Notes: generated by a model from the letters alone, not told the origin. A stretch of 64,000 nt of DNA from Myxococcales bacterium (GCA_047601445.1 JASGJH010000001.1:4224001-4288000); one strand, 5' to 3'. Positions 40,549-60,245 are shown, counted from the first letter of the stretch. Made by a program: numbers and translations.

Positions 40549-40707
40549 TGTATCATTTGGTCGATGCCTCCTTGAAGTGGCGGCCCCGGGCTGGACGCGC
40601 CAATGCGAGACGCCGTACACACTCGGCTGCGCAGCAGTGAGCACAGTTCTTGTCCGGCAGTCTGCTGGAAAGGTCGGCCAGGTACCCAAGCGGGCGGATT
40701 TTGCGAT

Positions 40708-42832: not shown

Positions 42833-43330
42833 TCAGAAGCGACTCAAGAGATAGCCGCTCGCCCCGGGCAGCTTTCCGTCGATCGCAATCGTGGCGACAC
42901 CAGGCGGCACCAGGTCCGCCGGCACGTACGTGATTGCCCCTGGTAGCGAGGCGACCACCCGCGCCGCTAGGTCCTCGGTCGGCAATGTGCGAGGCGGTTC
43001 CTGGCCGGTGCGAATGCGGCGGTCGACCCAGAATCGGCCCGCTTCGTCGGGGTCGCGACCCAGCACGATGCGGTCGAAGCGCTCGCGCAGAGGCGAGCCG
43101 GCAGGTTGATTGATCGGGATGAAGTACCTCCCGCGCGCGTACTGCGTGGAGTTTCCCTCGAAGATACTGCGGAGCTCCGACAAGCTGAGGCCACGCACCG
43201 CCTCGCCTTTGGCGACGATCACGACCAGCGGCGGCGGATGCTCGCCTTGCGCAGAGCCCGACCGAGGCCCGGGGGCCGCTCCGAGGAGCGCGAGGCTGAG
43301 CACGAATGCGATAGCTAACCTGCTTCCCAT
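42833..43330 (-). CDS. Small periplasmic-binding-protein-like protein, copy 1
   Basis: Signal peptide; LVVIV, LSLSELRSIFEG, FWVDRRIR, PPR, VASLPGAITYV. Confidence 0.78.
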   Translation of the reverse strand: MGSRLAIAFVLSLALLGAAPGPRSGSAQGEHPPPLVVIVAKGEAVRGLSLSELRSIFEGNSTQYARGRYFIPINQPAGSPLRERFDRIVLGRDPDEAGRFWVDRRIRTGQEPPRTLPTEDLAARVVASLPGAITYVPADLVPPGVATIAIDGKLPGASGYLLSRF

Positions 43331-43337
43331 GTTCGCC

Positions 43338-44681
43338 TCAGAATGCCAACGCTACCTGCGCCTGCAGGACGCGGAAGGTCCCTGGTCCGGTGCCCCGGAC
43401 AGTCGTTGCGTTCAGGTAGCTGGCTTTGATCGCGAGCTCGTCGAGCGGCCTCAGATTGAGACCGCCCTCGATGGTCACGACCCCAAGCTCGCCGGCAGGC
43501 CCTGGACTTTGGTTGTACTCGGTGAGCACGAAGGGCATGGTCCCTAACCAATGGAACCGATAGCCCCCGAGGAAGTAGCCCCCATAGTCCCAACTATCGT
43601 CCATGGGTGGTGGGGACATGGCACCGCCCGGCGGCGCCATGGGTCGCCCCTTATCGGTGTACTTGCGGCGTGAACCAAGCAGCTCGGTCTGCAGGTGCCA
43701 GCCGCGAAACTTCCACACCAGGTCCCCAGCCCAGCTGCCGAGGTGGAATTGGGAGCTGATCCGCTCGACGGCTGCCGGGAAGAGCCCATTCGAGGCAGGC
43801 TCGTAGATGCTGTCCGTGCTGAGTCCGTAGTATCCCGAAAGGCCGACGCGCAGCTCACCTCGAGCTCGCCTCCCCCACCATAGCCGCCCACCCACGGCCT
43901 TGTTCTCGTCGAGATCGCCATACTCGGAGATCGGCCCCGTTCCGTTGGAGAGAGTAAAATGATACCCAAGCTCGCTGCCCCCGGGAGTCTGCCAACGGCC
44001 CAACAGCTCGAGCCCAGTTTGGCGCTCGGGAAAGGAAAGCATGGTCACGAAGGGGCGCTGGACGGGTATGACGACAGGTGAGCCATGGTCGACATTCCAA
44101 ATGCCGAAGGGCGTGAGGTACTGCCCCAGACGCAAGGTCAACAGCGGGAAGATGTCCCAGTCGATGTAGATTCGCTCGATGACCACGCCTCCCCAGCGCA
44201 GGTCGCGCCCGAGCTGGTTGTAGTCTTGCACTGAGGTGCTTACACGCGTGCGGCCCAAGGGGTCCTGCGCCAGCGTTCCATTGGGGAGGTAGGTAAAGCG
44301 CACCTCGCCCAGCATCCGCAACGTGCGACTCAGCTCCTTCGCCAGGTACACGTTGAAGTTGCCGATGTAGAAGCTCGAATGGCCACCGTTGGACAGCAGC
44401 AGCCGTAGCGGACTCGACTGGGGAACGGCCAAATACGAGAAAGTGAAGTCCGTGAAGCCGCTGAGCTCAGGCGGACGCCGCAGGGGATTCTGCGTACGCG
44501 GAAACCCAAGTAGAGCGAGCTCTTCGGGTGACAACTGCTCCGACGTGGGGGAAGCGACCTTCGCGCCAGCGTCGGTGGGCTCCTGCGCCTCTGCTAACGC
44601 GCAACCCGGCGCGCAAAGAGCCGACAAGAGCAGCCACCGCAGGCCTCCCTTGCACTGCCCCCTCGAGCGGGTAAGGCGCAT
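43338..44681 (-). CDS. Outer-membrane beta-barrel (porin-like), copy 1
   Basis: Signal peptide; LSGFTDF, IERIYIDW, RLGQYLTPFGIWN, NKAVGGRL; terminal ALAF. Confidence 0.8.
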   Translation of the reverse strand: MRLTRSRGQCKGGLRWLLLSALCAPGCALAEAQEPTDAGAKVASPTSEQLSPEELALLGFPRTQNPLRRPPELSGFTDFTFSYLAVPQSSPLRLLLSNGGHSSFYIGNFNVYLAKELSRTLRMLGEVRFTYLPNGTLAQDPLGRTRVSTSVQDYNQLGRDLRWGGVVIERIYIDWDIFPLLTLRLGQYLTPFGIWNVDHGSPVVIPVQRPFVTMLSFPERQTGLELLGRWQTPGGSELGYHFTLSNGTGPISEYGDLDENKAVGGRLWWGRRARGELRVGLSGYYGLSTDSIYEPASNGLFPAAVERISSQFHLGSWAGDLVWKFRGWHLQTELLGSRRKYTDKGRPMAPPGGAMSPPPMDDSWDYGGYFLGGYRFHWLGTMPFVLTEYNQSPGPAGELGVVTIEGGLNLRPLDELAIKASYLNATTVRGTGPGTFRVLQAQVALAF

Positions 44682-44937
44682 TCGTGGAGGCCGACGGTAA
44701 GGTCATCGTGCGCCGGTGGCAACACCTGTTTGTTCCACCAAGCCGCGCCGTCGCTTGCTTGGCCCTGTTTGGTGCTGAGCCGCTCGCTCTTCGAAGGGCT
44801 CCTGAACGAGAACGCTCTCTTGCGCGCGTCACCGCACCTGTCGTCGCGGGGGGCAACCATGCCAGTGCGGATTCCAAGTTCCTTACGCAGGCGATCCGAC
44901 CGATCGATGCGGTAGCTTTTTCGGACGGAGGGGCAAG

Positions 44938-46695
44938 ATGCAGGCTGCGGCCACGATTCATCACACGAGTGCGACGCATAGCCCCGCGAGCAGGGATGAA
45001 AGATTCGACACGACCGAGCCTACCGACCGCGATGCGCCGCGCGTGCCGACCATCCTGCTCGCCGACGACGACCCCTCCGTGGTGGAGGCCCTACGCGAAG
45101 ACTTGGAGTCCATGCACTATGGGATCCGAGTAGCCTATAGCGGACGCGAATGCTTGGCCGAGCTGGGAGCGGGCGGCATCGATCTGGTGCTGCTCGACTT
45201 GATGATGCCAGAAGTCTCCGGGTTCCAAGTCCTGCAGTCGCTCTCGGCCAGCACGCCCTTGCGCAACCTACCCGTCGTGGTGTTGTCCGCACGCGGCAAC
45301 GATGCCGCCCGTGCCTTGAAGGCGGGCGCCGTGGATTACGTGACGAAGCCGTGGGAACCCGAGGAGCTGCTCATGCGCGTGGGGACGCACCTCAGGCTGC
45401 GCGAGCGCGAGCAGGAGCTCGCCTTGGCCGTCACACGCCTCGACCAGCGCAAGCGCGAACTGGAGAATGAAATCGTAGAGCGCAAGCGTGCCGAGGCACG
45501 ACTGGCCATGGCGAGTCGCATGTCCTCGGTCGGAGTCGTCGCCGCCGGCGTCGCCCACGAGATCAACAATCCCTTGACCTACCTAATAGGGAACTTGGAT
45601 CTCGCGCACGAGCAGCTGAATCTCCCTGCCATTCAGAAGCTCCAGATGGGTTCCGCTCCGGTTCTTCGGATGGTGGACCAAGCGCGCGAAGGCGCGGAAC
45701 GGGTTCGCCTGATCGTCCGGGACCTCAAGGCTTTTTCACGGCCCGATTCGGAAGAGCTGGAGTCCGTCAATGTCGTGGAGGTACTGGAGTCAGTGCTGCG
45801 CTTTGCCGGTCACGAGATCAAGCACCGGGCCAAGATCGAGTGGGACAGGCGGCCGACCCCCCGCGTGGTCGGAAACGCTTCGCGCCTGAGCCAAGTTCTC
45901 CTGAACATCGTGGCCAACGCTGCCCAGGCGATGGAACACGGTTCGCCAGACCGCGACGTGCTACGGGTGGAGACCTGCCTCGTTTCGATGGATTCCCAGC
46001 CAGCCGTCGAAGCGGACGTGTCCGCCCGCGCGCAGTGTTCTGACGACATGCTCGAGATCCGACTGCGAGACTCGGGCTCGGGCATGGATGCCTACACCGC
46101 TGCCCATGCATTCGACCTGTTCTATACCACCAAGACCAAGGGCACCGGCACGGGTCTCGGGCTGGCGCTGTGCCGCAAGATCGTCGAAGGATTTGGTGGA
46201 CGCATCGCGCTCCGGAGCGAGCGCGGCAAGGGAACGGAAGTGACCGTGACTCTGCGCGTGAGCCATGAACGGGACGTCGCCCCGGGAGCTACTCGTGCGG
46301 CGCCTGCGGCACCCACCTCGGAGATGCAAAAGGGGCACCTGCTGGTCATCGACGACGAGCCCGAGATCGGCGCTTTGATCATGACCTTTCTTGCCCGCCA
46401 CTACCACGTGCAAGTCGTCCATGAATCGACGGCGGCACTCAGTCTCCTCCGCTCCGGCCACCACTTCGATCTCGTGCTCTGCGATCTGATGATGACAGGC
46501 GTCAATGGCATCGATCTCTATGAGACCGTGCGACGGGAGCTCGTTGGTGGAGGCCCACCATTCGTGTTCATGACGGGAGGTCCATGCACCCAGCGAGCCG
46601 CTGCTTTCGTCAAACAGCACAAGAGCCGGGTGCTGGAGAAGCCCTTCTCACCGACTCGGCTCACGGAGACACTCGAAGCCGCGAGGAGTCACTGA
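44938..46695 (+). CDS. Cytoplasmic hybrid histidine kinase REC-HisKA-HATPase-REC
   Basis: LLADDD..LLDLMMP..TKP; AGVAHEINNPL; NAAQA, DSGSG, GTGLGL; VIDDE..LCDLMM..EKPF. Confidence 0.93.
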   Translation: MQAAATIHHTSATHSPASRDERFDTTEPTDRDAPRVPTILLADDDPSVVEALREDLESMHYGIRVAYSGRECLAELGAGGIDLVLLDLMMPEVSGFQVLQSLSASTPLRNLPVVVLSARGNDAARALKAGAVDYVTKPWEPEELLMRVGTHLRLREREQELALAVTRLDQRKRELENEIVERKRAEARLAMASRMSSVGVVAAGVAHEINNPLTYLIGNLDLAHEQLNLPAIQKLQMGSAPVLRMVDQAREGAERVRLIVRDLKAFSRPDSEELESVNVVEVLESVLRFAGHEIKHRAKIEWDRRPTPRVVGNASRLSQVLLNIVANAAQAMEHGSPDRDVLRVETCLVSMDSQPAVEADVSARAQCSDDMLEIRLRDSGSGMDAYTAAHAFDLFYTTKTKGTGTGLGLALCRKIVEGFGGRIALRSERGKGTEVTVTLRVSHERDVAPGATRAAPAAPTSEMQKGHLLVIDDEPEIGALIMTFLARHYHVQVVHESTAALSLLRSGHHFDLVLCDLMMTGVNGIDLYETVRRELVGGGPPFVFMTGGPCTQRAAAFVKQHKSRVLEKPFSPTRLTETLEAARSH

Positions 46696-49233
46696 GTGCA
46701 CCTGCGCCGCCGCAAGCCTGGTGCCCAGGATGGCCAAGCGCTCTCACCACAAGTCCGGGGGGTGATCGCCACTGGCGTGCAGATTCGCCTGGCGATCGCC
46801 GCGATCACGATGAGCCTCGTGCTGATCTTGTCGGTGATGACCGTGTTCTCCATCGATCGGGTCTTCAACTGGTTGACGCCAATCGCCGAGCAGGACCTAC
46901 GTTGGAAGGCCGAGCGTGGACTGGTCGAGCTCCGTCGAGGTGCCGAAGTTGGGCTACTGCTGCGCGACCAGGGCCTATTGCGTGCAGCGGTGCACTCCTA
47001 CGCCCTCGATCCAGACGTCGAGGCCATCGCGGTCGAGGACCGCGCTGGCATCCAGGTTTACCGGCATGCGAAGCGTCCCTTCTCCTCCGATGCACTGTTC
47101 GCGGGGTCCTCGAACATCGTACACAGCGAGCCGGGCCGCTTGCGCTCGTGGTCGCCGATCGCGATCGAAGGGAGGACGATCGGCCGATTGGGGCTCGCCA
47201 TCTCGACGAACCGAGTGTCTGCAGGTGCCACGTTGCGTAGCCGGGTGATTTGGTCTGCGCTCGGTGTAGGCATGCTCGCGGCATTGCTTTCATTCGTGAC
47301 CGTGCGGAGCTACGTCGCGCCCCTCCTAAACGTAACCCGGAAAGCCTTCGTGGACCTCGAGCAGCGCACGAGTGAGGCGCTGGCAGCTGACCGAGCCAAG
47401 AGTCGATTCCTCGCCAACGTGAGTCACGAGCTTCGCACCCCTCTGAATGGCGTGCTCGGGATGACCCGCCTCCTCCTGCAGGGTGAGCTATCAAGCGGCC
47501 AGCGCCGACGAGGCGAGATCATCCTTCAGGCCTCGGAGAACTTGCTCGTGCTCATCAACGACCTGTTGGATGCCACGGTCGCCGAGGCAGGCCATCTGCG
47601 CCTTTCGCCCGCCCCTTGCGAGCTGCGACGCCGCGTGCAGGAACGGGCCGAATTGCTGGCGACCGGCGCGCGAAGCAACGCGCTCGACATTGCTTGCAAC
47701 ATCGCCGACGAGGTCCCCTCCGTGGTGGTCATGGATGGCGAGCGCTTCGAGCAGGTCCTGAACAATGTGCTCGGAAACGCCATCAAGTTCACCACGCGAG
47801 GTGATGTCGAAGTATCGCTGCGACTCGTCGACCCGGCGGTACCAGGACCTCAGCCCCGCCTCCACGTAGAGGTGAGCGACATGGGTCCAGGCATCGCGGA
47901 AGCAGATCAACCGAAGTTGTTTCGAGCTTTCTCCCAACTCGACACGTCTGCTTCGCGACGGCACGAGGGAACCGGGCTCGGGCTCGCCATTTCAAGGCAT
48001 CTATTGGAGTGCATGGGCGGTGAGATTGGCCTGCGCAGCGAGCCCGGGAAGGGAGCGTGCTTCTGGTTCGCGCTCCCCTGCGAGGTCTTGACTCCCGCGC
48101 CACCACCGCTGCACGGCCCTCACAGGCTTCGGGTGCTGGTCGCCGACGAAAGTGCGATGTACCGCCGCCTCGTTGGCGCCTGGTGCTCGAATTGGGGAAT
48201 GGACGTGCAGATCGTGGAGGCTGCGACCGACATTCTGCCTCTCCTTCATTCATCTCGAGCCGGTGGCAATCCTGTCTCCGTGTTGATCATTGACGCCCGC
48301 ATGGTGCGTGCGCAAGGCCCGGCGCTGCTGCAGTCCCTGGCGACCTCTCTTGCTCAGAGCTTGCATGTAATCTGCCTCGCGTCGCCGCTCGATGACGTAC
48401 CCAAGCTGCCGGATGCGTTGAGTGCCAGAGTGCTGATGAAGCCCGTGCGCCCGGAAGCCCTGTTTGCCTTGGTCACGGGCCAGGCAACCGAGCGTGTTGG
48501 CCCCCCGCCTCGGTCTCCAAGCGCAGCCCCAAAGGGCGGCAGGGTTCTGGTAGTCGACGACCACGACGTCAGCCGAGAGGTCGCTGCAGAGGTGGTGCGT
48601 GGCCTGGGCTACACGTGCGATACCGCCGAAAGCGGCAAGCAAGCCCTCGAAGCCGTGGCTCGGCTAACCTATGACATGGTCTTGATGGACTGCCAGATGC
48701 CGGAGATGACCGGCTACGAAGCGACTCGCGCGATCCGCAGGTTGCCGCAATCCGAGACAGCCTCCATCCCGATTTTGGCCCTCACGGCCCACGCGCTCCC
48801 CGAAGAGGAAACCCGGGTGCGTAAGGCGGGGATGAACGGACTGCTCACCAAACCCCTGTCACCGGAACGCCTAGAAGACGCTTTGAAGCGGCATGTGACA
48901 CCCCCCCCAGCGACCCGCGAGGTTCCTTCCCCACGGCCACGGCGCTCGGCCCGCGTGCTCGAGCTGTTTTTGCGCCCAGTTCCGGATCAGCTCCAGCGGC
49001 TCCACGTCGCCATCGAGCGTGGCGCGCTGTCGGATGCAGCCCAGGAGGCGCACCGCCTGAAAGGCGGCTCCGCGAATGTCGGGGCGATGGAATTCTCGGC
49101 TCTTGCGGCCACCCTGGAGGACGCCTGCAACCGCGGCAGCGCCGACGACGCAGACGCATTCGCGCAACACCTCGACCGCGCGTTCCCTGCACTGAAAGCC
49201 CAGATCGAGCAGGAGATCGCGGACCGCGCCTAA
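46696..49233 (+). CDS. Membrane hybrid histidine kinase (periplasmic sensor-HisKA-HATPase-REC-REC-HPt), copy 1
   Basis: Two TMs; FLANVSHELRTPLNG, NAIKFT, GTGLGL, MDCQMP, AHRLKGGSANVG. Confidence 0.93.
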   Translation: MHLRRRKPGAQDGQALSPQVRGVIATGVQIRLAIAAITMSLVLILSVMTVFSIDRVFNWLTPIAEQDLRWKAERGLVELRRGAEVGLLLRDQGLLRAAVHSYALDPDVEAIAVEDRAGIQVYRHAKRPFSSDALFAGSSNIVHSEPGRLRSWSPIAIEGRTIGRLGLAISTNRVSAGATLRSRVIWSALGVGMLAALLSFVTVRSYVAPLLNVTRKAFVDLEQRTSEALAADRAKSRFLANVSHELRTPLNGVLGMTRLLLQGELSSGQRRRGEIILQASENLLVLINDLLDATVAEAGHLRLSPAPCELRRRVQERAELLATGARSNALDIACNIADEVPSVVVMDGERFEQVLNNVLGNAIKFTTRGDVEVSLRLVDPAVPGPQPRLHVEVSDMGPGIAEADQPKLFRAFSQLDTSASRRHEGTGLGLAISRHLLECMGGEIGLRSEPGKGACFWFALPCEVLTPAPPPLHGPHRLRVLVADESAMYRRLVGAWCSNWGMDVQIVEAATDILPLLHSSRAGGNPVSVLIIDARMVRAQGPALLQSLATSLAQSLHVICLASPLDDVPKLPDALSARVLMKPVRPEALFALVTGQATERVGPPPRSPSAAPKGGRVLVVDDHDVSREVAAEVVRGLGYTCDTAESGKQALEAVARLTYDMVLMDCQMPEMTGYEATRAIRRLPQSETASIPILALTAHALPEEETRVRKAGMNGLLTKPLSPERLEDALKRHVTPPPATREVPSPRPRRSARVLELFLRPVPDQLQRLHVAIERGALSDAAQEAHRLKGGSANVGAMEFSALAATLEDACNRGSADDADAFAQHLDRAFPALKAQIEQEIADRA

Positions 49234-49259
49234 ATTCGTGAGCGGTAGGCGACTCATCA

Positions 49260-50627
49260 TTAGGCATGTTGCTGGTCATGAGTCGGAAAGGAAAGGCTCA
49301 CTCGGGTCCCCTGCCCCAACGCACTTTCGACCGACAGCGTCCCTTCGTGTGCCTCCACGATTCGCTTGGCCATCGACAGCCCGAGACCCAAGCCGCCGCT
49401 GCGCCGGCTTCGACTCCTGTCGGTGCGGAAGAAAGGGGTCGCCAGGTACGGGAGGTCTGCGGCGGCGATCCCGATTCCTCGGTCTTGCACGGCGATCGTG
49501 AGGAGTGCATCCGAGTGACGCGCAGTGAGCTCCACCGCTGAGTCCGAGTCGGAATAGGCATGCGCATTTTCGAGCAGGTTCTCCAATACCCGTCGCAAGA
49601 GCATGGCGTTGCCCGTCATGACTGGCAGCTCTGGCTCGCAATGGAACTCCAGCGTGCGCTCGGGATGCGATGCTCGGAATCTGCTGGCTGCCTTTGCGAG
49701 TAGCTGTTCCATCTCGATCTGCTCGCCGCGGAAGCGGACCAACCCTTCTCCTGCCTTTCCGAGTGCGAGATCGAGCCGTGCAGTATGGAGGACATCAGTC
49801 ACGAGTTGCTCGAGTTCCCCGAGATCCTCCGCGATCGCGGAGAGCGACTCCCGCGCCATGCTCGCGTCTCCCTCGTCTGCGAGATCGAGCGCCACCCGAA
49901 TACGGGCCATGGGCGTGCGCAGTTCGTGGGAGACATTGGCGATGAGCTCCTGTTGCGCGCGGAGCAGCTTGGCCACGCGCTCGGCCATTTCGTCGAAGGT
50001 GTTGGCGAGTTCGCCGAACTCGTCGTTGCGACGTAGCCCTACCCTGACGTTCAGGTCACCCGCGCCGAGCTTGCGCGCGGCCAGCGCCAACGCCGCAAGG
50101 GGCGCCGCGAACGAGCGCGCCAGGATGATCGAGGCAACCGCGGTCGCGATCATGGACCCGCCGAAAGCCCAAAGAAAAGCGCTTTGGAGCGGCGGGGGTG
50201 GATTGGGAAGGTAAAGCGCGTAGCCATCAACTTGCCCTTGCGTGCCGAGGGGAACCGCCACCCGCGGTGGTACGCCATCCTCGAGGTACGATGACTGCAC
50301 GCGAAGCTTGGCCAACTGTGTCGGAGCCAGGGGCGCGAGAGGCGGCTGCACATTGGAGGTGATCAAGCGCCCCTCGAAGTCGTAGACACTGACCGCCCCT
50401 CCGAGGACGCCCTTCACCCTCGCGAGCTCCCTTCCGAGCGCGTCGGGTTCGTGTAGGCGCTCCGAGATTCCCTGCACCGCGAAGAGCGCCTCACGACTGA
50501 CGATGCCGCGCGCGTGCGGGTGGACGGACTGGGAGAACGCCAAGATCAAACAGCCGAGGATCGCCACAAGCAGCGCGAGACTAAGCCCGTAGATCCGAAA
50601 GGTCAGGCGACTCAGCCGCGGCACCAT
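49260..50627 (-). CDS. HAMP-domain sensor histidine kinase
   Basis: Two TMs, HAMP (RNDEFGELANTFDEM), VSHELRTP, NLLENA, GLGLGL. Confidence 0.93.
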   Translation of the reverse strand: MVPRLSRLTFRIYGLSLALLVAILGCLILAFSQSVHPHARGIVSREALFAVQGISERLHEPDALGRELARVKGVLGGAVSVYDFEGRLITSNVQPPLAPLAPTQLAKLRVQSSYLEDGVPPRVAVPLGTQGQVDGYALYLPNPPPPLQSAFLWAFGGSMIATAVASIILARSFAAPLAALALAARKLGAGDLNVRVGLRRNDEFGELANTFDEMAERVAKLLRAQQELIANVSHELRTPMARIRVALDLADEGDASMARESLSAIAEDLGELEQLVTDVLHTARLDLALGKAGEGLVRFRGEQIEMEQLLAKAASRFRASHPERTLEFHCEPELPVMTGNAMLLRRVLENLLENAHAYSDSDSAVELTARHSDALLTIAVQDRGIGIAAADLPYLATPFFRTDRSRSRRSGGLGLGLSMAKRIVEAHEGTLSVESALGQGTRVSLSFPTHDQQHA

Positions 50628-50631
50628 GGCT

Positions 50632-51330
50632 CTATCCTTCGTCGAACTGGGAGTCGCCCGCCAACATGTAGCCCGATCCTCTCACGGTCTTCAGCAGCCG
50701 CGGACGCCGCGAGTCATCGCCGAGCTTCTGGCGCAGGCGTGAGATCTGCACGTCGATGGAGCGATCGAAGGCGTCCTCTGCGTCTCCCTTCGCAAGGTAG
50801 AGCAGTCGCTCACGCCCCAGCACACGGCCTGCATGTTCGGCGAGTGCACGCAGCAGTGCGAACTCGTATGCAGTAAGGGCTAACGGACGGCCATCGAGGC
50901 TGGCACGAAGCGCCTGTGGGTCGATCAAGAGCCCACCGACACGCAGCACTTCATTGGCTGGTCCGGCCTTACCCCGAGCACGCCGCACGTGGGCCCGTAT
51001 GCGCGCGACGAGCTCACGTGACGAGAACGGCTTGGCGACGTAGTCGTCTGCGCCGAGCTCCAGCCCCATCACACGGTCCGCCTCTTCGTCGCGGGCCGTC
51101 AGAATCACGATGGGAACATCCGTGCGTGCGCGCAGCTCCTTGCACACCGAAAGACCGTCGAGACTCGGCAGCGAGAGGTCGAGCAACACGACATCGGGAC
51201 GCTCTCGGAGCGCCTCCTTCAAGCCCTGCTTGCCGTCGGGGACCCAGGTGACCTGAACCCCATGGCTCTCCAGGTAACGTGAAGTGAGCTGCGCTAAGCG
51301 CTCGTCGTCCTCGATGAACAGCACTCTCAT
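50632..51330 (-). CDS. OmpR-family response regulator
   Basis: IEDD, LLDLSLP, GADDYVAKPF, DRSIDVQISRLRQKL, KTVRGSGY. Confidence 0.95.
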   Translation of the reverse strand: MRVLFIEDDERLAQLTSRYLESHGVQVTWVPDGKQGLKEALRERPDVVLLDLSLPSLDGLSVCKELRARTDVPIVILTARDEEADRVMGLELGADDYVAKPFSSRELVARIRAHVRRARGKAGPANEVLRVGGLLIDPQALRASLDGRPLALTAYEFALLRALAEHAGRVLGRERLLYLAKGDAEDAFDRSIDVQISRLRQKLGDDSRRPRLLKTVRGSGYMLAGDSQFDEG

Positions 51331-51514
51331 GACCAACCCTTCGAATAGTCCGCAGCTAGAGCCTGCACCTCCACAGAAGCAGCGCTCGTCTCACCATCGA
51401 CGGCAGTGATCGACGTTACTAGCCGGATTCGCTGCAGCTTCTTCATGTTGCCCAACTGTGTCGAAATGTGAACTCGCGAAGATCCGCCTCCCGAGCTCTA
51501 TACCATTTCTGAGC

Positions 51515-52306
51515 ATGCTGAATCAGGGGAGAGTCGACCAGGCGGGCCGCGTACTGGTGATCGACGACGACGAGATCGCGCTCGAGAGCATCCGCGATGT
51601 GCTCGCAGAAGCAGGCTTCCAGGTGCATTGCCTGACGTCTCCAATCGGAGCCACACAGGTGATCGTGAGCCACGGGATCGACGCGGTGGTGGTGGACCTG
51701 AACATGCCCGTCCTACGCGGAGACCGCTTCATTTCCCTGCTGCGAAGCTGGGAACGCATCCGCGACCTGCCCACGATCCTGCTTTCAGGAGCGTCCACCG
51801 AAACGTTGGAGAAGCTGGCCCAGCAGATGCCCGGCGTGCAAACGGTGACCAAGGAGAGCATGCGGCGTCTGCTGCCCCTGGCACTGCGACGAAGCATGGC
51901 CCGGGAGAGGGCGCATCCGACGTCGCTGCGCCGCGCAACGGATCTGAGCTCCGTGGAGAAGGGTGCGCTCGCGAGCGCTGCGCAAGCCAGCCTGAAAGTT
52001 CTGCTCGAAGGAGCCGCCGGACGCGAGATCCAGTGGGAGTCGTTGCTCCATACGCTGAAACTCCTGCGAGACCACGCGCAGCAGGTGGGGACGGCGCAGC
52101 TGGTCAAGCTGACCGCCAAGCTCGTTGAGGTCGGCGAACGCTGTGCCGATCGCCGGAACTTGGTGCCTGACGCACGTCTCGCGCTGCGCGGCGCCCTCGA
52201 CTTCCTCACCTGCTTGGAGGGCTCGAACGCCGGACCCCGGCTGCCCCAGATGGCGGCCGTGCATCTCTCACGCCTCGAGCGCGTCCTGGAGGACCTTTCC
52301 AAGTGA
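51515..52306 (+). CDS. Response regulator with REC and helical (degenerate HPt-like) C-terminal domain
   Basis: VLVIDDD, VVDLNMP, ILLSG; C-terminal LLHTLKLLRDHAQQVG helical bundle. Confidence 0.8.
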   Translation: MLNQGRVDQAGRVLVIDDDEIALESIRDVLAEAGFQVHCLTSPIGATQVIVSHGIDAVVVDLNMPVLRGDRFISLLRSWERIRDLPTILLSGASTETLEKLAQQMPGVQTVTKESMRRLLPLALRRSMARERAHPTSLRRATDLSSVEKGALASAAQASLKVLLEGAAGREIQWESLLHTLKLLRDHAQQVGTAQLVKLTAKLVEVGERCADRRNLVPDARLALRGALDFLTCLEGSNAGPRLPQMAAVHLSRLERVLEDLSK

Positions 52307-54954
52307 CTGATACGAAGTCGACCTTGCCGGCAGGCTCTGCGGACCTGAAACACGACGCGCTTCTCCTCGAGGCCGAGCAAACGGCTCTCCTGGGAAGGCG
52401 CATCAAGCTTGGCTTCATGTGCTTTTCGAGCGGCCTCTTGCTCGCACTCTCCGGGATGATTTTCCTGATCGTCACCCAGATATTCGACTCGCTGACACCC
52501 GCCGTACAGCGCGACCTCGAGTGGAAGGCTTCTCGCGGCGCCCTCGCGCTGAGCCGCGAAATCGAGTACGGCGCCCTCACTGAAGACGCAAAGGCGCTCG
52601 CCTCTCAGGTGGCTCACTACGCCAGTGATCCCGATGTGAACGCCATCGTCGTGGTGAGCGCAACCGGAAAGCCGCTGTACGAGCGCGGCGCGACGCCCCT
52701 CACCCGGGCGGAGTTGTTCCGAGGCAAGCCCGGGGCCATCGAGCAGTCAGGCCATGCCTACTTCTCGCACGGGGATGCCGTGATCGAGGGAGTACTCGTC
52801 GGACGGGTGGCAATCGTCGTCTCGACCGAGCGCCTGCGTGCAGGAGACCGTCTGCGCAACACCGTGCTGCTCTCGGGCGCGACCGGCTGCCTCGTCGCCC
52901 TTGCCCTTGCTCTCGCCTTCGTGAGTCTGTACGTGAGCCCGTTGCTCGAGATTGTCCGCGGTGCCTTCGCCCGGCTCGCCGAGACCACGGCGCAGGCACT
53001 CGAGGCGACCCGGCTCAAGAGCGAGTTTCTGGCGAACATGAGCCACGAGATCCGCACGCCGATGAATGGTGTGCTGGCGATGACCGACATGCTGTTGCGC
53101 ACCCAGCTCGACGCGAGACAGGCCCGCTTTGCGGACGTGGTGCGAGCCTCCGCCCGCAGCCTGCTGACGATCATCAACGACATCCTGGACTTCTCCAAGA
53201 TCGAAGCTGGCAAGTACGAACTCTCACCGAGCGACTTTGACCTACGAATCCAGGTTCAGGAGACGATGGAGCTGTTGGCTCCGCGCGCCCGGGAGAAGCA
53301 GCTCGAGTTTGCCTATCGCATCGCCCCCGACGTTCCGCGTCTGGTGCGGACGGATCCCGACCGCTTCAAACAAGTGCTGACCAACCTGCTCGGCAACGCG
53401 ATCAAGTTCACCGAGAAGGGCGAGATCGTGCTGACAATCAGCGCCGCGCGACAGGAGGGATCCCAGCTCACGCTGCGCTGCTCCGTGCGCGATACAGGCC
53501 CCGGAGTCAGCCCGCAGAACCTCCTGCGCCTGTTCAGCTCCTTCTCCCAAGTCGACGGCTCGAGCACGCGACGCTATGGCGGGACCGGCCTCGGGCTCGT
53601 CATCTCCAGAAAGCTAGCGGAGCTCATGGGTGGCACCGTCACCGTCGACAGCAAGCTGGGTGAGGGAAGCACCTTCGTCTTCAGCGCGCAAGCTGTGGAG
53701 GTCTCGAAGCCAGAGGTCCACCCCGCGAGCGCCCAAGCCGGCAAGCGAGTACTGATCGTGGACGACAGCGCGTTGGTGCGTGGTCTACTCGAAGAGCAGC
53801 TAGTGTACTGGGGGATGCGCTGTGTCAGCGTGGACAGCGCCGCTGACGCCATGCTGTGTATCGAGCGCGCCCTGATGGAAGGTACGCCCTTCGACGCGGT
53901 GCTGCTGGACGCCGAACTGCCAGCACAAGAAGGGCTCGAACTCGCTCGCGCTGTCGTCACGAGCCCAATGACTCTACCGCTCGTCTTGATGACCACGGAG
54001 AGCGATTCGAACCGCCCTCCAGCGCTGCAAAGGCTGCCCACCCTCGCCAAGCCGCTGCGGGAGTCGGACCTTTTCGATCGCCTGATGGACGCGTTTCACC
54101 TCCCCCGCGGCCAGGCGCAGGGCGCGGCGATGCAGGTCGGACAACGCCGCAAACAGCTGTGCGGACGGGTGCTCGCAGTAGATGACAACGAGATCAATCA
54201 GGCCGTGGCGGAGGAGCTGCTTGCCGAACTCGGACTCGAGGCGGACGTAGTGAGCAATGGGCTCGAGGCGTTTCACGCCGTGCAAAAGCACCGCTACGGG
54301 GTCGTCTTGATGGACTGTCAGATGCCCGTCATGGACGGCTATGCCGCTGCACGCGCCATTCGCGGGTGGGAAGCGGAACACCAGGCACCACGAACGCCCA
54401 TCGTTGCACTGACAGCCCACGCTCTGTCGGGAGAGCGCGAGAAGGTGTTGGCGGCCGGCATGGACGATTACCTGACGAAGCCCATCCCGGTGCGCTCGTT
54501 GGAAGCAACGCTGACGCGGTTCTTGTCGGGCGTACCAGCACCGGTCGCACCGCTGAAGGAAGACATCAGCGCACAGGATGAACGGCGTGTGCCGCTCGTT
54601 GCCCGACCTGAGAACGACGCGACCAGTGAGCTGCTGGCGCCGGACGCGCCGCGCTCCACACGCGTCATCGAGCTCTTTCTGACACGCGTTCCAGACCAAA
54701 TTGCGGACCTCTCGCATGCCGTCGCGAGCACCGACGCGGGACGGGTCCGGTCGGTCGCCCACAAGCTCAAGGGCAGCTGCACGAGCGTGGGCGCCGCGCC
54801 CATGGCGATGCTGTGCGAGCAGATGGATCACGACGCATCGTCAGGCGATCTGAGTCGCGCGAGTGAGCGCGCAAGCAAGCTCACGACCTTGTTCTCCGAG
54901 ACGGCCCGTCTACTCGAGCAGGAGATGCAGCGGAGTAAAAGCGCGTCTGCCTGA
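52303..54954 (+). CDS. Membrane hybrid histidine kinase (periplasmic sensor-HisKA-HATPase-REC-REC-HPt), copy 2
   Basis: GTGA overlap with RR; FLANMSHEIRTPMNG, NAIKFT, GGTGLGL, MDCQMP, AHKLKGSCTSVG. Confidence 0.95.
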   Translation: MTDTKSTLPAGSADLKHDALLLEAEQTALLGRRIKLGFMCFSSGLLLALSGMIFLIVTQIFDSLTPAVQRDLEWKASRGALALSREIEYGALTEDAKALASQVAHYASDPDVNAIVVVSATGKPLYERGATPLTRAELFRGKPGAIEQSGHAYFSHGDAVIEGVLVGRVAIVVSTERLRAGDRLRNTVLLSGATGCLVALALALAFVSLYVSPLLEIVRGAFARLAETTAQALEATRLKSEFLANMSHEIRTPMNGVLAMTDMLLRTQLDARQARFADVVRASARSLLTIINDILDFSKIEAGKYELSPSDFDLRIQVQETMELLAPRAREKQLEFAYRIAPDVPRLVRTDPDRFKQVLTNLLGNAIKFTEKGEIVLTISAARQEGSQLTLRCSVRDTGPGVSPQNLLRLFSSFSQVDGSSTRRYGGTGLGLVISRKLAELMGGTVTVDSKLGEGSTFVFSAQAVEVSKPEVHPASAQAGKRVLIVDDSALVRGLLEEQLVYWGMRCVSVDSAADAMLCIERALMEGTPFDAVLLDAELPAQEGLELARAVVTSPMTLPLVLMTTESDSNRPPALQRLPTLAKPLRESDLFDRLMDAFHLPRGQAQGAAMQVGQRRKQLCGRVLAVDDNEINQAVAEELLAELGLEADVVSNGLEAFHAVQKHRYGVVLMDCQMPVMDGYAAARAIRGWEAEHQAPRTPIVALTAHALSGEREKVLAAGMDDYLTKPIPVRSLEATLTRFLSGVPAPVAPLKEDISAQDERRVPLVARPENDATSELLAPDAPRSTRVIELFLTRVPDQIADLSHAVASTDAGRVRSVAHKLKGSCTSVGAAPMAMLCEQMDHDASSGDLSRASERASKLTTLFSETARLLEQEMQRSKSASA

Positions 54955-55034
54955 TGAAGGCTCGCGAAGGGTACTTGGACGAAAGTTTTGCTCAGGTCAC
55001 GGATACCTGAGCTGAAGTGGGGAGGGACAACGTG

Positions 55035-55460
55035 ATGATGTGGTGGGCGCGACCCCTGGCTGGGGTCGTTTGGGTTGGGTGCGCTTGCGCGTGCCTCTAC
55101 GACGCAGACAACCGTTGCGGATCGCACCAGGTGTTGATCGACGACAGTTGCGTGTGTGAAACCGGCTACGCGCTGGAGGGCAACGCCTGCGAGATGCAGC
55201 CTCGAGCGGGCGTCGGAAACGACGCGGGAACAGGGGGCGACGATATAGCGTCGCGCTATACGGGCCAGAAGGAGCCCTGCGCTGCCGACGCTGACTGTGC
55301 AGACTTCGACGCCACCTTCTGCGACACGCGGAACAACTACTGTGTGGTGCCAGACTGCATGGACGGGAGCTGCGACCAGGGCTGGACGTGCACGGACCTG
55401 TCCGAGTTCATGCCGGGCTTGCCCAAGGTTTGCACCTTCGACGCGGACCGGCCGTCATGA
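55035..55460 (+). CDS. Small Cys-rich (EGF-like) putative lipoprotein
   Basis: ACACLYD lipobox-like; CVCETGYALEGNAC; many Cys; ATGA overlap with next gene. Confidence 0.72.
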   Translation: MMWWARPLAGVVWVGCACACLYDADNRCGSHQVLIDDSCVCETGYALEGNACEMQPRAGVGNDAGTGGDDIASRYTGQKEPCAADADCADFDATFCDTRNNYCVVPDCMDGSCDQGWTCTDLSEFMPGLPKVCTFDADRPS

Positions 55461-56809
55461 CGCGGAATCCGCGCACATGGACGACTGTTCGGCGAGTCGG
55501 ATGCGCTCTCATGTGCCTCGGGTTGGCGGCGGCCGAAGCGCCAGCGTCGGCACAGGACGTTCGAGCGTCGCAAGCACCGGAGCCCCCGCCTGCAGGGGTG
55601 ACCAGCGAGGACCAAGCAGCGCTCGACACGCTGCTCGACGACGACTCGAGCGCTGAGAGTGAGCGTCCGAACCTTTCGCTCTACGGCTTCGCGGACGCCT
55701 CGGTCGAACGGATGTACTCGACCGGCAAGGGACCGAGCCTCGCAGAGTCGCCCGTCTTCACTGTGGGCAACGTCAACGTGTACCTGGCCAGCAACCTCAC
55801 GCACGGTTTCTCGAGCCTGATCGAGGTTCGCTTCTCGTACTTGCCCAACGGGACGGCCGGAGCGTCTGGCAGCTACGAGACGACCAGCGCTGCGGACTCG
55901 GCCAACTTCGGGCGCACGGAGCAGTGGGGAGGCATCGTCTTGCAGCGCGTGCACCTCGACTACAGCTTTCGCGGTTGGCTCAACGTGCGCGTCGGTCAGT
56001 TCCTGACGCCTTATGGGATTTGGAACGTGGACCACGGCAGCCCCACCATCATCGGCACCAACAAGCCCTACGTGGTCGGCGATGGCCTCTTCCCGCAACG
56101 TCAAACGGGCCTGGAGGTGTTTGGCTCCCGGCTATTCGGCGCTACGACCCTGGGCTATCACGTCACGGTCTCCAACGGCCGCAGCGACGTCCTGAACTCC
56201 GATTTCGACAAGAACAAAGCCTTGGGTGGGCGCCTGTTCTTGGCGAGCGATGCGATCGGCGCGTTCAAGCTTGGTGTCTCGGCATATGGGGGTCGCGCCA
56301 CCATGCAGCCCTACTCAGGGCTCGACACCACGTCGACACCTCCCTTGCCGGCCAAGCTCTCGGACAATCAGTACGACGAGCTAGCATTGGCAGGAGACCT
56401 TCAGTGGGATCTCGGGAACCTGCATCTGCAGGGGGAAGGCATCCTGCGTCAGGTTCGCTATCTCGAGGCAGGCCGCAAGACACAGACGGACTTCACCGGG
56501 GCACTCACGGGTCTCGTGCCCGACAACCTGCGCTGGGGTTGGTACGGCCTCGCGGGATATCGTCTACCGTGGCTCGCCGCGATGCCCTTCGTCTTGGTGG
56601 AGCAAAATTGCGGAATCGCCGGCAGCAGTCCGACTGGCGCGTTCTTCGATCCTGCAGGCCGCATTCTCACGCTCACGGGCGGACTCAACGTGCGGCCGGT
56701 ACCGAGCGTGGTGTTGAAAGTGCAAGCGACCTGGATCAAGCCCCCGGCCGACGGGCCAGGGGCCGGCTCCCTAACGGCCGTTTCCGGCCAGGCAGCGTGG
56801 GCATTCTAA
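55457..56809 (+). CDS. Outer-membrane beta-barrel (porin-like), copy 2
   Basis: Signal peptide; LYGFAD, EVRFSYLPNG, GQFLTPYGIWNVDHGSP, NKALGGRL; terminal AWAF. Confidence 0.8.
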   Translation: MTRNPRTWTTVRRVGCALMCLGLAAAEAPASAQDVRASQAPEPPPAGVTSEDQAALDTLLDDDSSAESERPNLSLYGFADASVERMYSTGKGPSLAESPVFTVGNVNVYLASNLTHGFSSLIEVRFSYLPNGTAGASGSYETTSAADSANFGRTEQWGGIVLQRVHLDYSFRGWLNVRVGQFLTPYGIWNVDHGSPTIIGTNKPYVVGDGLFPQRQTGLEVFGSRLFGATTLGYHVTVSNGRSDVLNSDFDKNKALGGRLFLASDAIGAFKLGVSAYGGRATMQPYSGLDTTSTPPLPAKLSDNQYDELALAGDLQWDLGNLHLQGEGILRQVRYLEAGRKTQTDFTGALTGLVPDNLRWGWYGLAGYRLPWLAAMPFVLVEQNCGIAGSSPTGAFFDPAGRILTLTGGLNVRPVPSVVLKVQATWIKPPADGPGAGSLTAVSGQAAWAF

Positions 56810-57324
56810 TGCGATTTTTTTTCCACATCCTCAAGGCAACCATGCTCGGCCTCGTGGTCATCACGCTGGTGACCGATGGCTCCCTCGCGCTCGCATCGGC
56901 CCAGCCGACAGTGAGTGGACCGACGCCCCTGGTCGTGATCGTATCCGCTCGTTCGGGCATCCACGATCTACCTAAAGCTCTGCTGAAGCGCATTTTCCTG
57001 GGCGAAGCCTCCGAGTACCAAGGCACACGCTTCGTTCCTCTCAACTACGTCGTGAGTGACCCGGTCCGTCGCGCATTCGACGAGATGCTGCTGGGTTTTG
57101 CCGGCGATGCGGCTGGTCGGTACTGGGTCGACCGCCGCATACGCGGACAGGGGCTCCCCCCACGGATCGCCCCGTCGAGTGCCGTCGTGCGCGTCGCCGT
57201 GGCCAAGCTCCCCGGAGCCATCGGCTACGTGCGTCCCGCGGACCTGGATGCGTCCGTGCGCGCGGTGACCGTGGATGGCTTGCCATACACGGCGGCAGAC
57301 TACGCGCTGCGGGCCTCGCGCTAG
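56809..57324 (+). CDS. Small periplasmic-binding-protein-like protein, copy 2
   Basis: TAATG coupling; signal peptide; LVVIV, LLKRIFLG, YWVDRRIRG, PPR, VAKLPGAIGYV. Confidence 0.8.
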   Translation: MRFFFHILKATMLGLVVITLVTDGSLALASAQPTVSGPTPLVVIVSARSGIHDLPKALLKRIFLGEASEYQGTRFVPLNYVVSDPVRRAFDEMLLGFAGDAAGRYWVDRRIRGQGLPPRIAPSSAVVRVAVAKLPGAIGYVRPADLDASVRAVTVDGLPYTAADYALRASR

Positions 57325-57373: not shown

Positions 57374-58538
57374 ATGGCGGACGCTCAACGCGAGCACACA
57401 TCGCTACTATTCAGCTGGCTACCTCGCGCGCTCACGAAGCCTCAGGAGCCGCCGACCTTACGGAACCCGCTGCTGGAGAGTCGTATGTTCGTGTCGACGC
57501 TGGTCGTGAAGGGGATCGCGACCGAACTTCAACGGCATGGTCACGACACCTCGGCCTGGCTGCGTCGTGCAAAGCTCGAGCCCCCTGACTCGCCTGGCGC
57601 GCCGACCCATATAGACGTCCGCGCGTGCGCCGACCTCGCCGAGGAGGCCGCGCGTGCTCTCGATGATCCCGCTCTCGGTCTGACCATCGCGTCGCGAGAG
57701 CACGCGTTCACCTTTCATTTGCTCGGCTACATGCTGCTGTCGTCTCGCAATCTTCTCGAGGCATTCAGGCTGTGCCAGAAATACTCCTGCCTCGTCATGG
57801 ACAATCTGCGGTTCGAGGTGGTGGATCTCGGTGCGCGCACTCATCTTCGTTTCGAGGTGCTCGCGGCCGGCGACTCCGCGTTCGCTCATTTTTGCGAAGA
57901 TCTCACGGTCGCGCTCGTCTATCGCTTGATCATGCACCAGGTCCCAGGCGCACCAGCGCCAGAGGTATGGTTGAGCCGCCCACGGCCCGATCGAACTGCG
58001 CGCTATCACGAGCTCTTCTCGGGCCGGGTGCGCTTCGGAGCAAGTCGCTGCGAGGTCCTCGTCGCGCGGGACCTTCTGGAAATCCGGCAGTCCCACGGTG
58101 ACCCGCACGTTCTCGAGTGGCTGAAGAAAGCTGCCGACGCGGCTCTTCTACGGGACCGTTCGGCCGTGTCCACCATGACCGAGCGGGTGCGAATGGTGCT
58201 TGCGAAGGAACCTGACGGCCGCACGCCGCTTGCCCACGAGAATCGCTGCCCAGCTGGGTGTCGGCGCGCGCGGGCTCCGGAGGCACCTTCGCGACGAAGG
58301 GAGCAGCGTTCGAGCTCTTCTCGATGAACATCGCATGCGAGCCGCCCGCGCCATCCTTGCGATGCCCAATACGACCGTGAAGGAGACCGCCGAGCGCCTC
58401 GGCTACTCGGAGCCGAGCGCCTTCCACCGTGCATTCAAGCGGTGGACCGGCTCGACCCCCCACGACTTCTTGATTGCGCAGCGCGGGCATGGCGCCCCCC
58501 GTCCCCTGGAGCCCGGGCGTCCGAGCCCACTGCTCTAG
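57374..58538 (+). pseudogene. AraC-family regulator (VirS/OruR-like), split by a +1 frameshift before the HTH
   Basis: N-domain (DPALGL, YHELFSGRVRFG) in ORF 57275-58327; HTH (IAAQLG..LRRHL..LGYSEPSAFHRAFKRWTG) in +1 ORF 58200-58538. Confidence 0.85.
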
Positions 58539-58673
58539 GCCAGGCGGCATCTCGCGAAGGAACACTGTTCAGGCGCCTGTCACGAGTCCGTGCGCCCAGT
58601 GTCATTCCATCAAACGAGAGTAGCGGGCAATGTCCCCGTACCTGCTCCGGCACCACGCTCCAAGGAGTCTCGG

Positions 58674-60245
58674 ATGCATAGCCACGTGCGTTGGGCGCCT
58701 CCGGTTGCGCTCTCTCTCTCCGTTCTGATCACCCAAGCTTCCCTTTCAAGCTGCGTGGATGACAAGCTTCCCCCGTCCAGCTGCGGCAGCTCCACAGCAT
58801 GTGCCGCCACCGAGCAGTCCTCAAAGAAGCTGCCCTGCGACGTCCAGACATTGCTGACCGATCGCTGCGGCGAGTGCCATGGCACCCGCAACGAGCATCC
58901 CGCTCCCATGAAGCTGGTGAGCTGGGATGACCTGCATGCGGACGCGCCGACCCTCGACGCAAAAGTCTACGATGCTGTGCTCACGCGCGTGACCAGTAAG
59001 CAGAAGCCGATGCCACCCATGCCCTACGAGGCGCTCACTGAAAGCGAGGTCGCCACTCTGAAGCAGTGGGTAGAAGAGGGGGCGCCTGCGCGCAAATCCG
59101 GCCTATCTTGCACGGGCGACGATGACGATCGAAATCATGGAGATGGAGATGGTGACGGCGACGATGTGGATGCTACCGGCGATGGTGATGTCAGCCCTGG
59201 CGACGGCGGCACTGATCCTGGCGACCATCCCCCTCCAAGCTACGAGGCCACGGATCGGAGTGGTGGGCCGGACGACTGCGATACCTACTACGAGCTACGC
59301 GCGCACGGGAAGCAGGTGGACTACGACAACACGCCGTTCAAGGTGAACGCCAACCTGGGCAACGACGGAAATCAATATCACTGCTTCTACTTCAAGGCCC
59401 CCTACAGCCAGGGCGACGATGGTCTTTGGTTCAAACCATTGATCGACAAGAGCAAGATTCTCCACCATTGGCTCCTGTATGGAACCGATTCGCTGCCATA
59501 TCCATCTGGCTCTTCCGCGCCCTGCAGCGCGGCAGAGCCGGGTGCCTACCTGCTGGCCGGCTGGGCGCCGGGGGCTGCTGAAACGACCATGCCGGAGGGC
59601 GTCGGCATGCAGATGCCGGGCGGCATCGGCGGGTTGATCCTCGAAGTCCACTACTACAATCCTGGTGCGGAATCCTTCGAGGACCGCAGCGGCGTAAAGT
59701 TCTGCACTGCCCCCGAGAAAGCACGCGAGCACGAGGCAGCCGTTCACTTCACGGGGGGTGAAGGCATCTGTTTGCCGCCGCAAACGACCCACGACGTGGT
59801 CGGAATTTGCGAGCCTCCCGACAACGTCGGCGACATTCACATCATCAACATCTGGCCGCACATGCACAAGCTTGGGATTCGCATGGAGGTGAACCTGTAC
59901 CGCGCAAACGGTGCGAAGGAAGTCTTGCACGACAAGCCGTTCAACTTCGACAACCAGATCGGCTATCCGAAGGATGTCGTCCTCAAGCCCGGGGATCGAC
60001 TCGAGACCATCTGCCACTATGAGAACACCACGGACCGCTACGTCCCGTTCGGCGAAAAGACACAAACCGAGATGTGCTACGGGTTTATCACCGCGTGGCC
60101 TGCTGCGGCGCTCACGACGGACCCGCTGACGTACAACCCCATTGATGTCATCGGCACGGGTATCCAGCCGGCCAGGCGTTGCCTCGACCCCGATGGGATC
60201 TTCGGGAGCTGCAACGGGCTCGCGGACTATCCTTTGCCACGCTGA
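58674..60245 (+). CDS. Lipoprotein: c-type cytochrome domain fused to a copper type II (DBH/PHM-like) monooxygenase
   Basis: AAGGAG RBS; LSSC lipobox; CGECH (58866-58880) + MPP; ILHHWLL, LEVHY, PHMH, EMC. Confidence 0.85.
   Translation: MHSHVRWAPPVALSLSVLITQASLSSCVDDKLPPSSCGSSTACAATEQSSKKLPCDVQTLLTDRCGECHGTRNEHPAPMKLVSWDDLHADAPTLDAKVYDAVLTRVTSKQKPMPPMPYEALTESEVATLKQWVEEGAPARKSGLSCTGDDDDRNHGDGDGDGDDVDATGDGDVSPGDGGTDPGDHPPPSYEATDRSGGPDDCDTYYELRAHGKQVDYDNTPFKVNANLGNDGNQYHCFYFKAPYSQGDDGLWFKPLIDKSKILHHWLLYGTDSLPYPSGSSAPCSAAEPGAYLLAGWAPGAAETTMPEGVGMQMPGGIGGLILEVHYYNPGAESFEDRSGVKFCTAPEKAREHEAAVHFTGGEGICLPPQTTHDVVGICEPPDNVGDIHIINIWPHMHKLGIRMEVNLYRANGAKEVLHDKPFNFDNQIGYPKDVVLKPGDRLETICHYENTTDRYVPFGEKTQTEMCYGFITAWPAAALTTDPLTYNPIDVIGTGIQPARRCLDPDGIFGSCNGLADYPLPR

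Follow-up and report, generated by a model that had tools for sequence, protein, structure and literature searches.

A putative four-part trans-envelope signalling module combining a porin-like barrel, a Cys-rich lipoprotein, half of a PstS-type protein and a CHASE8-related sensor in a Myxococcales bacterium

In this study, we analysed a 64,000-nucleotide stretch of DNA from a Myxococcales bacterium (GCA_047601445.1 JASGJH010000001.1:4224001-4288000; hereafter the window), which between positions 42,833 and 57,324 contains two sets of genes for an outer-membrane beta-barrel, a small protein related to periplasmic binding proteins (PBPs) and a hybrid histidine kinase. We propose, at about even odds, that these proteins and a Cys-rich lipoprotein make up a four-part trans-envelope signalling module that would work like the YfiBNR system with different parts. 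According to this model, the hybrid kinase, which is of the BarA type, has a dimeric single-Cache/CHASE8-like sensor, and the small protein, a half-PBP, is predicted to dock on the distal tip of this sensor; once docked, it may set the activity of the kinase. The porin-like barrel and the Cys-rich lipoprotein would provide the outer-membrane input, most likely by capturing or releasing the half-PBP on meeting a signal, a step suggested by the gene linkage and by the YfiB-YfiR precedent; occupancy of the kinase tip would thus report events at the outer membrane. The kinase, in which the necessary domains are present, would then pass phosphate from His to Asp to Hpt and on to a neighbouring REC protein. 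The barrel-PBP-lipoprotein front end appears to be a portable unit that has been re-paired with different kinases in the past and also serves chemoreceptors and other outputs. The parts of the module are not large enough to reach across the periplasm, which makes a shuttling half-PBP more plausible than one forming a fixed bridge. On a more general level, we regard it as quite probable that the half-PBP serves as a sensor accessory of some kind.

The half-PBP and its predicted docking site on the sensor

As judged from its predicted structure, the half-PBP is one lobe (domain II) of PstS, and it is presumably no longer a phosphate carrier. The model (predicted local distance difference test score, pLDDT, 90.7) has PstS as its best fold match (1twy_A, Z 17.3, root-mean-square deviation (rmsd) 1.9, 124 residues aligned), in agreement with Foldseek, and its approximately 135 mature residues cover only residues 101-239 of the 1twy chain, which is a single lobe; the label PBP-like given in the initial annotation has to be narrowed to one PstS lobe. 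The R-x-x-x-S-G-S/T phosphate loop of PstS is absent; in its place, after the second strand, an alignment of 146 rows shows predominantly Y/L, P and L. Conserved residues are W106 (146/146 rows), carried by a helix that is inserted relative to PstS, and R87 (144/146) and N79 (115/146), both of which sit in the PstS ligand loop. The half-PBPs of the window have no Pfam match at E<=0.1 and obtain no name from NCBIfam. YfiR is not among the listed fold matches, although such a missing row excludes nothing, and its family (PF13689) has one match in the genome, at 1.64 Mb, and none at the seven module copies described below.

The sensor is, on the evidence of its modelled fold, a single-Cache/PAS domain that is probably related to CHASE8, the family to which the sensor of YfiN belongs (PMC8085984). 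Its model (pLDDT 95.1) resembles CitA (Z 13.0) and CdgS9, an orthologue of LapD (Z 12.5, rmsd 2.9, 117 aligned). CHASE8 itself is matched by 15 of 98 sensor homologues at E<=0.01 (best 8e-7, one above the cut-off) and by neither of the window kinases. When 62 homologues were scanned, the sensor was found fused in hybrid kinases, plain kinases, Hpt-HATPase (class III-like) kinases and SpoIIE phosphatases. The two window kinases had been thought to share the same C-terminal tail, and Pfam indeed identifies HisKA, HATPase, two REC stretches and Hpt in both, with no HAMP match in the module kinases. Both thus carry HisKA-HATPase-REC-Hpt on one chain, which is the BarA/GacS-type layout, and score 360 and 468 bits, below the BarA equivalog cut-off of 890 bits. 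The response regulator that precedes kinase 2 belongs to a REC family that tracks the module kinases. Its longest open reading frame (ORF) starts at 51458, and the ATG at 51515 agrees with homologues. The 130-residue helical tail of this regulator (51515-52306) has no Pfam match and by eye resembles an Hpt bundle minus the conserved His; it is absent from many orthologues, which are lone REC domains.

Based on a complex model of two kinase 2 periplasmic domains and half-PBP 2, we predict that the half-PBP caps the sensor dimer. Modelling of this pair had been suggested in the initial annotation as a check of the proposed relay, and an interface is predicted, with scores of 0.67, 0.66 and 0.67 compared with 0.01 for the best of three controls; the contacts agree to at least 98% between runs and the partner pLDDT is at least 88. 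One half-PBP bridges both sensor subunits at the membrane-distal tip in the model, and the predicted docking residues of kinase 2 are 88-89, 92-93, 161-164 and 166, which include the I161-E162-G163 hairpin. W106 of the half-PBP touches E162 of the sensor, a residue kept in 94% of sensor rows.

A comparable arrangement is found in the LapD-LapG system (Pseudomonas fluorescens; CdgS9 in Legionella), in which a single periplasmic partner of another fold sits on the dimer at the same tip via a distal hairpin, as seen in a solved 2:1 complex (PMC4359373). By analogy, control might run from the inside out, with the state of the kinase holding or releasing the half-PBP, which in turn would gate the porin or position the lipoprotein. 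Both the fold match to CdgS9 and the model of one partner held by a hairpin on the dimer tip are in agreement with this idea. However, the catalytic domains of LapD are degenerate, whereas those of the kinases here all look intact, and the pairing of the front end with many active outputs, including chemoreceptors, suits an input; we consider inside-out control improbable. The two systems also differ in the hairpin itself (GWxQ in LapD, I/V-E-G in the module sensor) and in the partner, which is a transglutaminase-like protease in one case and a half-PBP in the other.

The barrel and the lipoprotein

The barrel is porin-like according to its features and predicted structure. Its nearest clusters are Porin_O_P (OprO/OprP, PF07396) and the Gram-negative porins of Porin_4 (PF13609), with a feature score of 0.97 and a predicted-structure template modelling (TM) score of 0.75-0.77. 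The window barrels have no Pfam match at E<=0.1 and no NCBIfam name, and a PDB sequence search returned nothing for the barrel; the PF07396 cut-off is passed by one remote barrel (locus L150). A C-terminal Phe and the loop G-x-W-N-x-D-H-G are each found in 57 of 60 loci.

A porin of this type might instead selectively admit one small molecule, probably an anion, that is bound by the half-PBP, either alone or with the sensor tip as second half-site; the half-PBP would then signal to the kinase in the manner of LuxP-LuxQ, and no barrel-PBP contact would be needed. The resemblance to OprO/P-type porins, the invariant polar residues of the barrel (e.g. the W-N-x-D-H loop), the retention of N79 and R87 in the half-PBP and the predicted PBP-sensor docking would all be compatible with such a ligand. 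The Ser-Gly-Ser/Thr phosphate motif is lost, however, and the second lobe is absent; the co-variation and near-constant adjacency of barrel and half-PBP (see below) fit contact, as well as plain linkage, and the lipoprotein is left unexplained. We rate this explanation as possible, and clearly less likely than the signalling module proposed above.

The Cys-rich lipoprotein belongs to the core of the family. It has a lipobox and, in most family members, 11-29 Cys. The sole Pfam match is a sub-threshold one to EGF-like domains, a PDB sequence search finds no solved relative, and the only lead from the structure/feature atlas lies below 0.9. One more specific form of our proposal, which we put forward as a speculation somewhat less likely still than the ligand-conducting pore, is that the barrel is a dedicated carrier of the lipoprotein as a surface sensor (for prey, kin or polymer) and releases or captures the half-PstS shuttle, which would then reach the CHASE8-like kinase tip. 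If this were true, half binding proteins would have been recruited twice independently for the same kind of sensor tip (type I in YfiR and type II here), and seven variable front ends would feed shared kinases and a chemosensory pathway.

A seven-copy family in the genome

The genome, a single contig of 9.5 Mb, was scanned and contains seven barrels and seven half-PBPs, each barrel lying beside a half-PBP (7/7). The lipoprotein is encoded at six of the seven loci and is absent only from window copy 1, and all five kinases with this sensor are located less than 3.5 kb from a barrel. The gene order is regulator-kinase-lipoprotein-barrel-PBP in window copy 2 and in the copies at 4.33 Mb and 6.77 Mb, and lipoprotein-barrel-PBP-kinase-regulator in the copy at 6.12 Mb. 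At 4.56 Mb, barrel, PBP and lipoprotein are followed by a methyl-accepting chemotaxis protein (MCP) and then by CheW/A/B/R-like genes, and at 2.57 Mb the order is PBP-lipoprotein-barrel with no sensor. The chemoreceptor of the MCP copy (L003:75-10352) has a helical periplasmic region and precedes the CheW/CheA/CheB/CheR-like genes, with a divergent REC gene and a small Hpt-like ORF in between. The kinase of the 6.12 Mb copy (L004:10000-12658) is split by a frameshift just past HisKA, and is either a pseudogene or affected by an assembly error.

It had been assumed in the initial annotation that the three gene types occur as two copies. The duplication itself is evident, but it belongs to a family of seven, in which the window pair is not mutually closest: copy 2 is closest to the 4.33 Mb copy, with 63/76/69% identity (barrel/PBP/sensor) compared with 36/41/37% to copy 1. 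These identities and the trees lead us to reject the idea that the window copies arose from each other by local tandem duplication.

As the initial annotation had stated for the window, genes for ABC transporter components are missing: of the 17 permease matches in the genome and the 79 listed ATPase matches (224 candidates, 150 of them scored), not one falls in the window or less than approximately 45 kb from any of the seven copies. Full-length PstS genes with permeases are present elsewhere in the genome, at 2.36 and 8.92 Mb. Since permeases are absent, only one lobe is present and the phosphate motif is lost, the earlier view that the small proteins are unlikely to serve uptake is supported.

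Gene neighbourhoods in relatives

The same gene types are linked in related bacteria, and named homologues are mostly from Polyangiales and Myxococcales. Within an order sample of 301 genomes, 38 have a barrel, which is a floor obtained with a strict first look; the genomes are related and not independent. A strong sensor match is present in 37/301 genomes, 33 of which also have a barrel, and the lipoprotein profile, which was built from barrel loci, matches in 42/301, 34 of which have a barrel. We fetched 64 barrels; among the 53 with flanks of at least 1.5 kb, a half-PBP adjoins 48 and the lipoprotein 46, and among the 35 with flanks of at least 6 kb, this sensor is found within 7 kb of 17 and any kinase or MCP within 7 kb of 21, the background for a kinase or MCP at random positions of the present genome being 20%. 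Conversely, a barrel lies within 8 kb of 28 of the 49 strong sensor matches, and a half-PBP only at two more. In a phylum sample, 33 of 251 genomes match the half-PBP search, and 20 loci, chosen from the stronger matches outside the loci already in the set, show a barrel match in 18, a kinase or MCP in 18 and a permease in none. The co-occurrence with sensors that the initial annotation had proposed to look for is thus far above chance, and permeases are nearly absent, as it had expected.

Other outputs that this front end would feed are chemoreceptors, class III kinases, SpoIIE proteins and GGDEF-EAL proteins, and true CHASE8 proteins occur among the neighbours at three of the phylum loci (L057, L058, L157). 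A search with a single distant homologue yielded six Massilia, Herbaspirillum and Telluria loci with a barrel-like ORF and a half-PBP followed by a GGDEF-EAL protein (Pfam-confirmed in 1/6). In two genomes, the half-PBP stays with the kinase and the barrel and lipoprotein are located elsewhere without a PBP (L115/L071 and L122/L099), which indicates that the half-PBP can follow either neighbour. Other arrangements were also seen: two sensor kinases without the module that lie beside another barrel, of the DUF1302 family (L114:7103-8692 and L118:5737-7533), two tandem barrel-half-PBP pairs with no lipoprotein or sensor match nearby (L096:7137-12207), and a barrel-half-PBP-lipoprotein unit right downstream of a NIT-HAMP-SpoIIE protein with a different sensor type (L044:4482-9222).

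A number of observations weigh against the proposed module. With regard to linkage, a kinase or MCP match is missing from the surrounding 7 kb of 14 of the 35 barrels with long flanks, and 19 of the 49 sensors lack both a barrel and a half-PBP in the surrounding 8 kb, including 12 for which at least 5 kb of flank is available on both sides; a half-PBP match is missing from two of five checked genomes with the sensor (92 and 98% complete, fragmented), and four genomes have no barrel. The sensor at one copy in the present genome is an MCP whose periplasmic region is of a different, helical kind, and NIT or dCache sensors are found in relatives, so that docking at the tip cannot be universal. With regard to the complex model, own alignments and two copies were used, unlike in the calibration, and the benchmark (116 of 157 solved complexes and 2 of 215 mismatched pairs reached the mark) therefore holds only roughly; moreover, since the LapD-LapG complex at the same tip is solved, the score may be partly memory of that site. 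Interface residues are not significantly more conserved (p 0.06 for the sensor, 0.10 for the PBP), and the correlation of PBP and sensor distances of 0.19 (p 0.03, n=19) falls to 0.12 (p 0.16, n=16) when three recent duplicates are removed; this set excludes a further three of 22 loci, in which the kinase core is not complete.

The linkage data also bear on the explanation that barrel, half-PBP and lipoprotein are an uptake or envelope cassette which merely lies beside regulators and acts without touching the kinase. The three form the tightest unit, and the barrels without a detected sensor, the sensors without the unit and the sensorless 2.57 Mb copy are what such a cassette would lead one to expect. 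A permease is found, however, at 0/7 copies of this genome and 0/20 phylum loci, with matches at a single order-level locus (L079), on the opposite strand, and the genome has its full-length PstS and permeases elsewhere. Furthermore, at seven loci the sensor gene comes directly after that of the half-PBP, in split modules the half-PBP stays with the kinase, and an interface between half-PBP and sensor is predicted. We hold the independent cassette to be quite unlikely, and the least likely of the explanations considered here.

Distances among the barrels correlate with those among the half-PBPs (0.40, p 0.001, n=16 with the duplicates dropped). At four loci that share a sensor clade, the barrels reject that clade in the approximately unbiased (AU) test (p 4e-6; 14 of 22 loci, the group having been picked after seeing the trees), which indicates that front ends have been swapped among kinases. 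Strict cognate barrel/PBP/kinase pairs are not supported. The relay had initially been described as dedicated, and this part of the description is not supported, in view of the exchanged front ends, the sensors without barrel or PBP and the other outputs that the front end feeds.

Comparison with known systems

YfiBNR of P. aeruginosa and E. coli consists of an outer-membrane component, a small periplasmic half-PBP and an inner-membrane signaller with a PAS/CHASE8 domain, in which YfiR, resembling one lobe of a type I binding protein, bridges the outer-membrane protein and the YfiN PAS domain (PMC4655355, PMC8085984). With its probably CHASE8-related sensor and predicted tip contact, and with YfiR itself being half a PBP, the module is closer to this system than the initial annotation had held. 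It is not a member of it, as regulator family, outer-membrane partner and output all differ: YfiR is a type I lobe (DUF4154) and the half-PBP here a type II PstS lobe; YfiB is an OmpA-like lipoprotein and its counterpart a porin-like barrel plus Cys-rich lipoprotein; and the output is a diguanylate cyclase (HAMP-GGDEF) in the former and an Hpt phosphorelay through a HisKA-HATPase-REC-REC-Hpt kinase in the latter. Repression in YfiBNR is relieved by sequestration at the outer membrane. At 1.64 Mb, the genome has a parallel locus (L138, 1641253-1644699) comprising the terminal part of a barrel-like gene of large size together with a REC gene, a small ORF, YfiR (DUF4154) and an MCP. The REC protein belongs to the family of the window regulator (E 2e-20), and the MCP has a weak CHASE8 match (E 0.001) and a sensor that aligns weakly to the module sensor (probability 41%, E 0.0003). 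This locus fits the idea that type I and type II half-PBPs fill the same slot.

Hybrid kinases that depend on a PBP are known from LuxP-LuxQ and TorT-TorS, and the module would share with them and with PstS a domain II fold and a binding-protein relative that is predicted to act on a hybrid kinase. It differs from PstS and the Pst system in that the protein is one lobe without the phosphate motif, pstCAB is absent and the gene lies with those for a barrel and a lipoprotein. OprO/OprP, which are characterised by an arginine ladder and anion selectivity, and the Gram-negative porins are nearest to the barrels by features and predicted structure, and the window barrels have neither a Pfam match nor a solved sequence relative. 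At the level of a general description, the RcsF-porin/IgaA/RcsCDB system likewise combines a disulfide-rich outer-membrane lipoprotein, a beta-barrel and an Hpt phosphorelay; RcsF works via general porins and IgaA, with no half-PBP.

A literature search, which mostly did not extend to subscription journals, found no paper describing a module of porin, half-PstS and sensor. The present locus adds the myxobacterial four-part form with its conserved Cys-rich lipoprotein and the expansion to seven copies with swapped front ends, together with the proposed assignment of the sensor as CHASE8/LapD-like and the controlled prediction of a half-PBP/sensor interface. Thousands of half-size proteins without permeases are annotated as 'phosphate ABC transporter substrate-binding protein', and the locus gives them a candidate job as sensor accessory subunits, with W106 and E162 as candidate key residues. 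If the proposal is true, it would reveal a widespread, undescribed route by which outer-membrane signals reach kinases, chemoreceptors and cyclic di-GMP enzymes, as well as convergent use of half a binding protein beside YfiR, and the Cys-rich lipoprotein would be a candidate myxobacterial surface sensor.

Gene content of the window

The genes are listed in Table 1; all ORFs are present at the coordinates initially assigned, and the paralogy proposed there is borne out. The barrels share 139 of 360 aligned residues (39%, E 3e-70), the half-PBPs 64 of 152 (42%, E 2e-29) and the kinases 318 of 859 (37%), and the shared motifs that had been listed, including the periplasmic one of the kinases, all lie within these alignments.

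Table 1. Module genes and their neighbours in the window (+ and -, strand)
Feature	Position	Strand	Description
Half-PBP copy 1	42833..43330	-	165 residues, signal peptide, single PstS-type lobe by prediction; profile match to PstS, E 1e-12
Porin-like outer-membrane beta-barrel copy 1 (predicted)	43338..44681	-	447 residues, C-terminal Phe, GIWNVDHG motif; 7 bases upstream of the half-PBP
Soluble hybrid kinase	44938..46695	+	REC-HisKA-HATPase-REC; abuts kinase 1; not a conserved module part
Hybrid kinase 1	46696..49233	+	Transmembrane segment, single-Cache (CHASE8-like) sensor by prediction, transmembrane segment, HisKA, HATPase, REC, REC, Hpt
HAMP histidine kinase (49260-50627) and OmpR-type regulator (50632-51336)	49260..51336	-	Between the copies
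Response regulator	51515..52306	+	REC and helical tail of ~130 residues; REC family adjoins sensor kinases
Hybrid kinase 2	52303..54954	+	Architecture as kinase 1; sensor region 52384-52986
Cys-rich lipoprotein	55017..55460	+	Lipobox Cys26, 15 Cys; fourth core component
Porin-like beta-barrel copy 2 (predicted)	55457..56809	+	450 residues
Half-PBP copy 2	56809..57324	+	171 residues; invariant W106 in predicted helix inserted relative to PstS

The overlaps reported for copy 2, GTGA between regulator and kinase, ATGA between lipoprotein and barrel and TAATG between barrel and PBP, are all in the DNA, and kinase 2 is separated from the lipoprotein gene by 62 bases. The two copies had been called outward-facing, which is correct for the barrel-PBP pairs but not for the kinases, both of which are on the + strand, so that transcription of kinase 1 leads away from the barrel-PBP pair of copy 1. 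Scans for sigma-70 promoters and terminators gave signals at or below shuffled levels. The HAMP kinase and OmpR-type regulator pair between the copies shows no sign of module membership and is not a regular neighbour in the loci of relatives.

Downstream of copy 2, an AraC regulator (57374-58538) appears to be split into two overlapping ORFs, its ligand domain being in one frame and its helix-turn-helix in another. The gene at 36795-40689, which is Ser/Thr kinase-like, likewise appears as two overlapping ORFs, and such recurrent frameshifts suggest indel errors in the assembly. Further downstream, the gene at 58590-60245 encodes a predicted exported protein with a cytochrome c-like domain and both copper type II monooxygenase domains.

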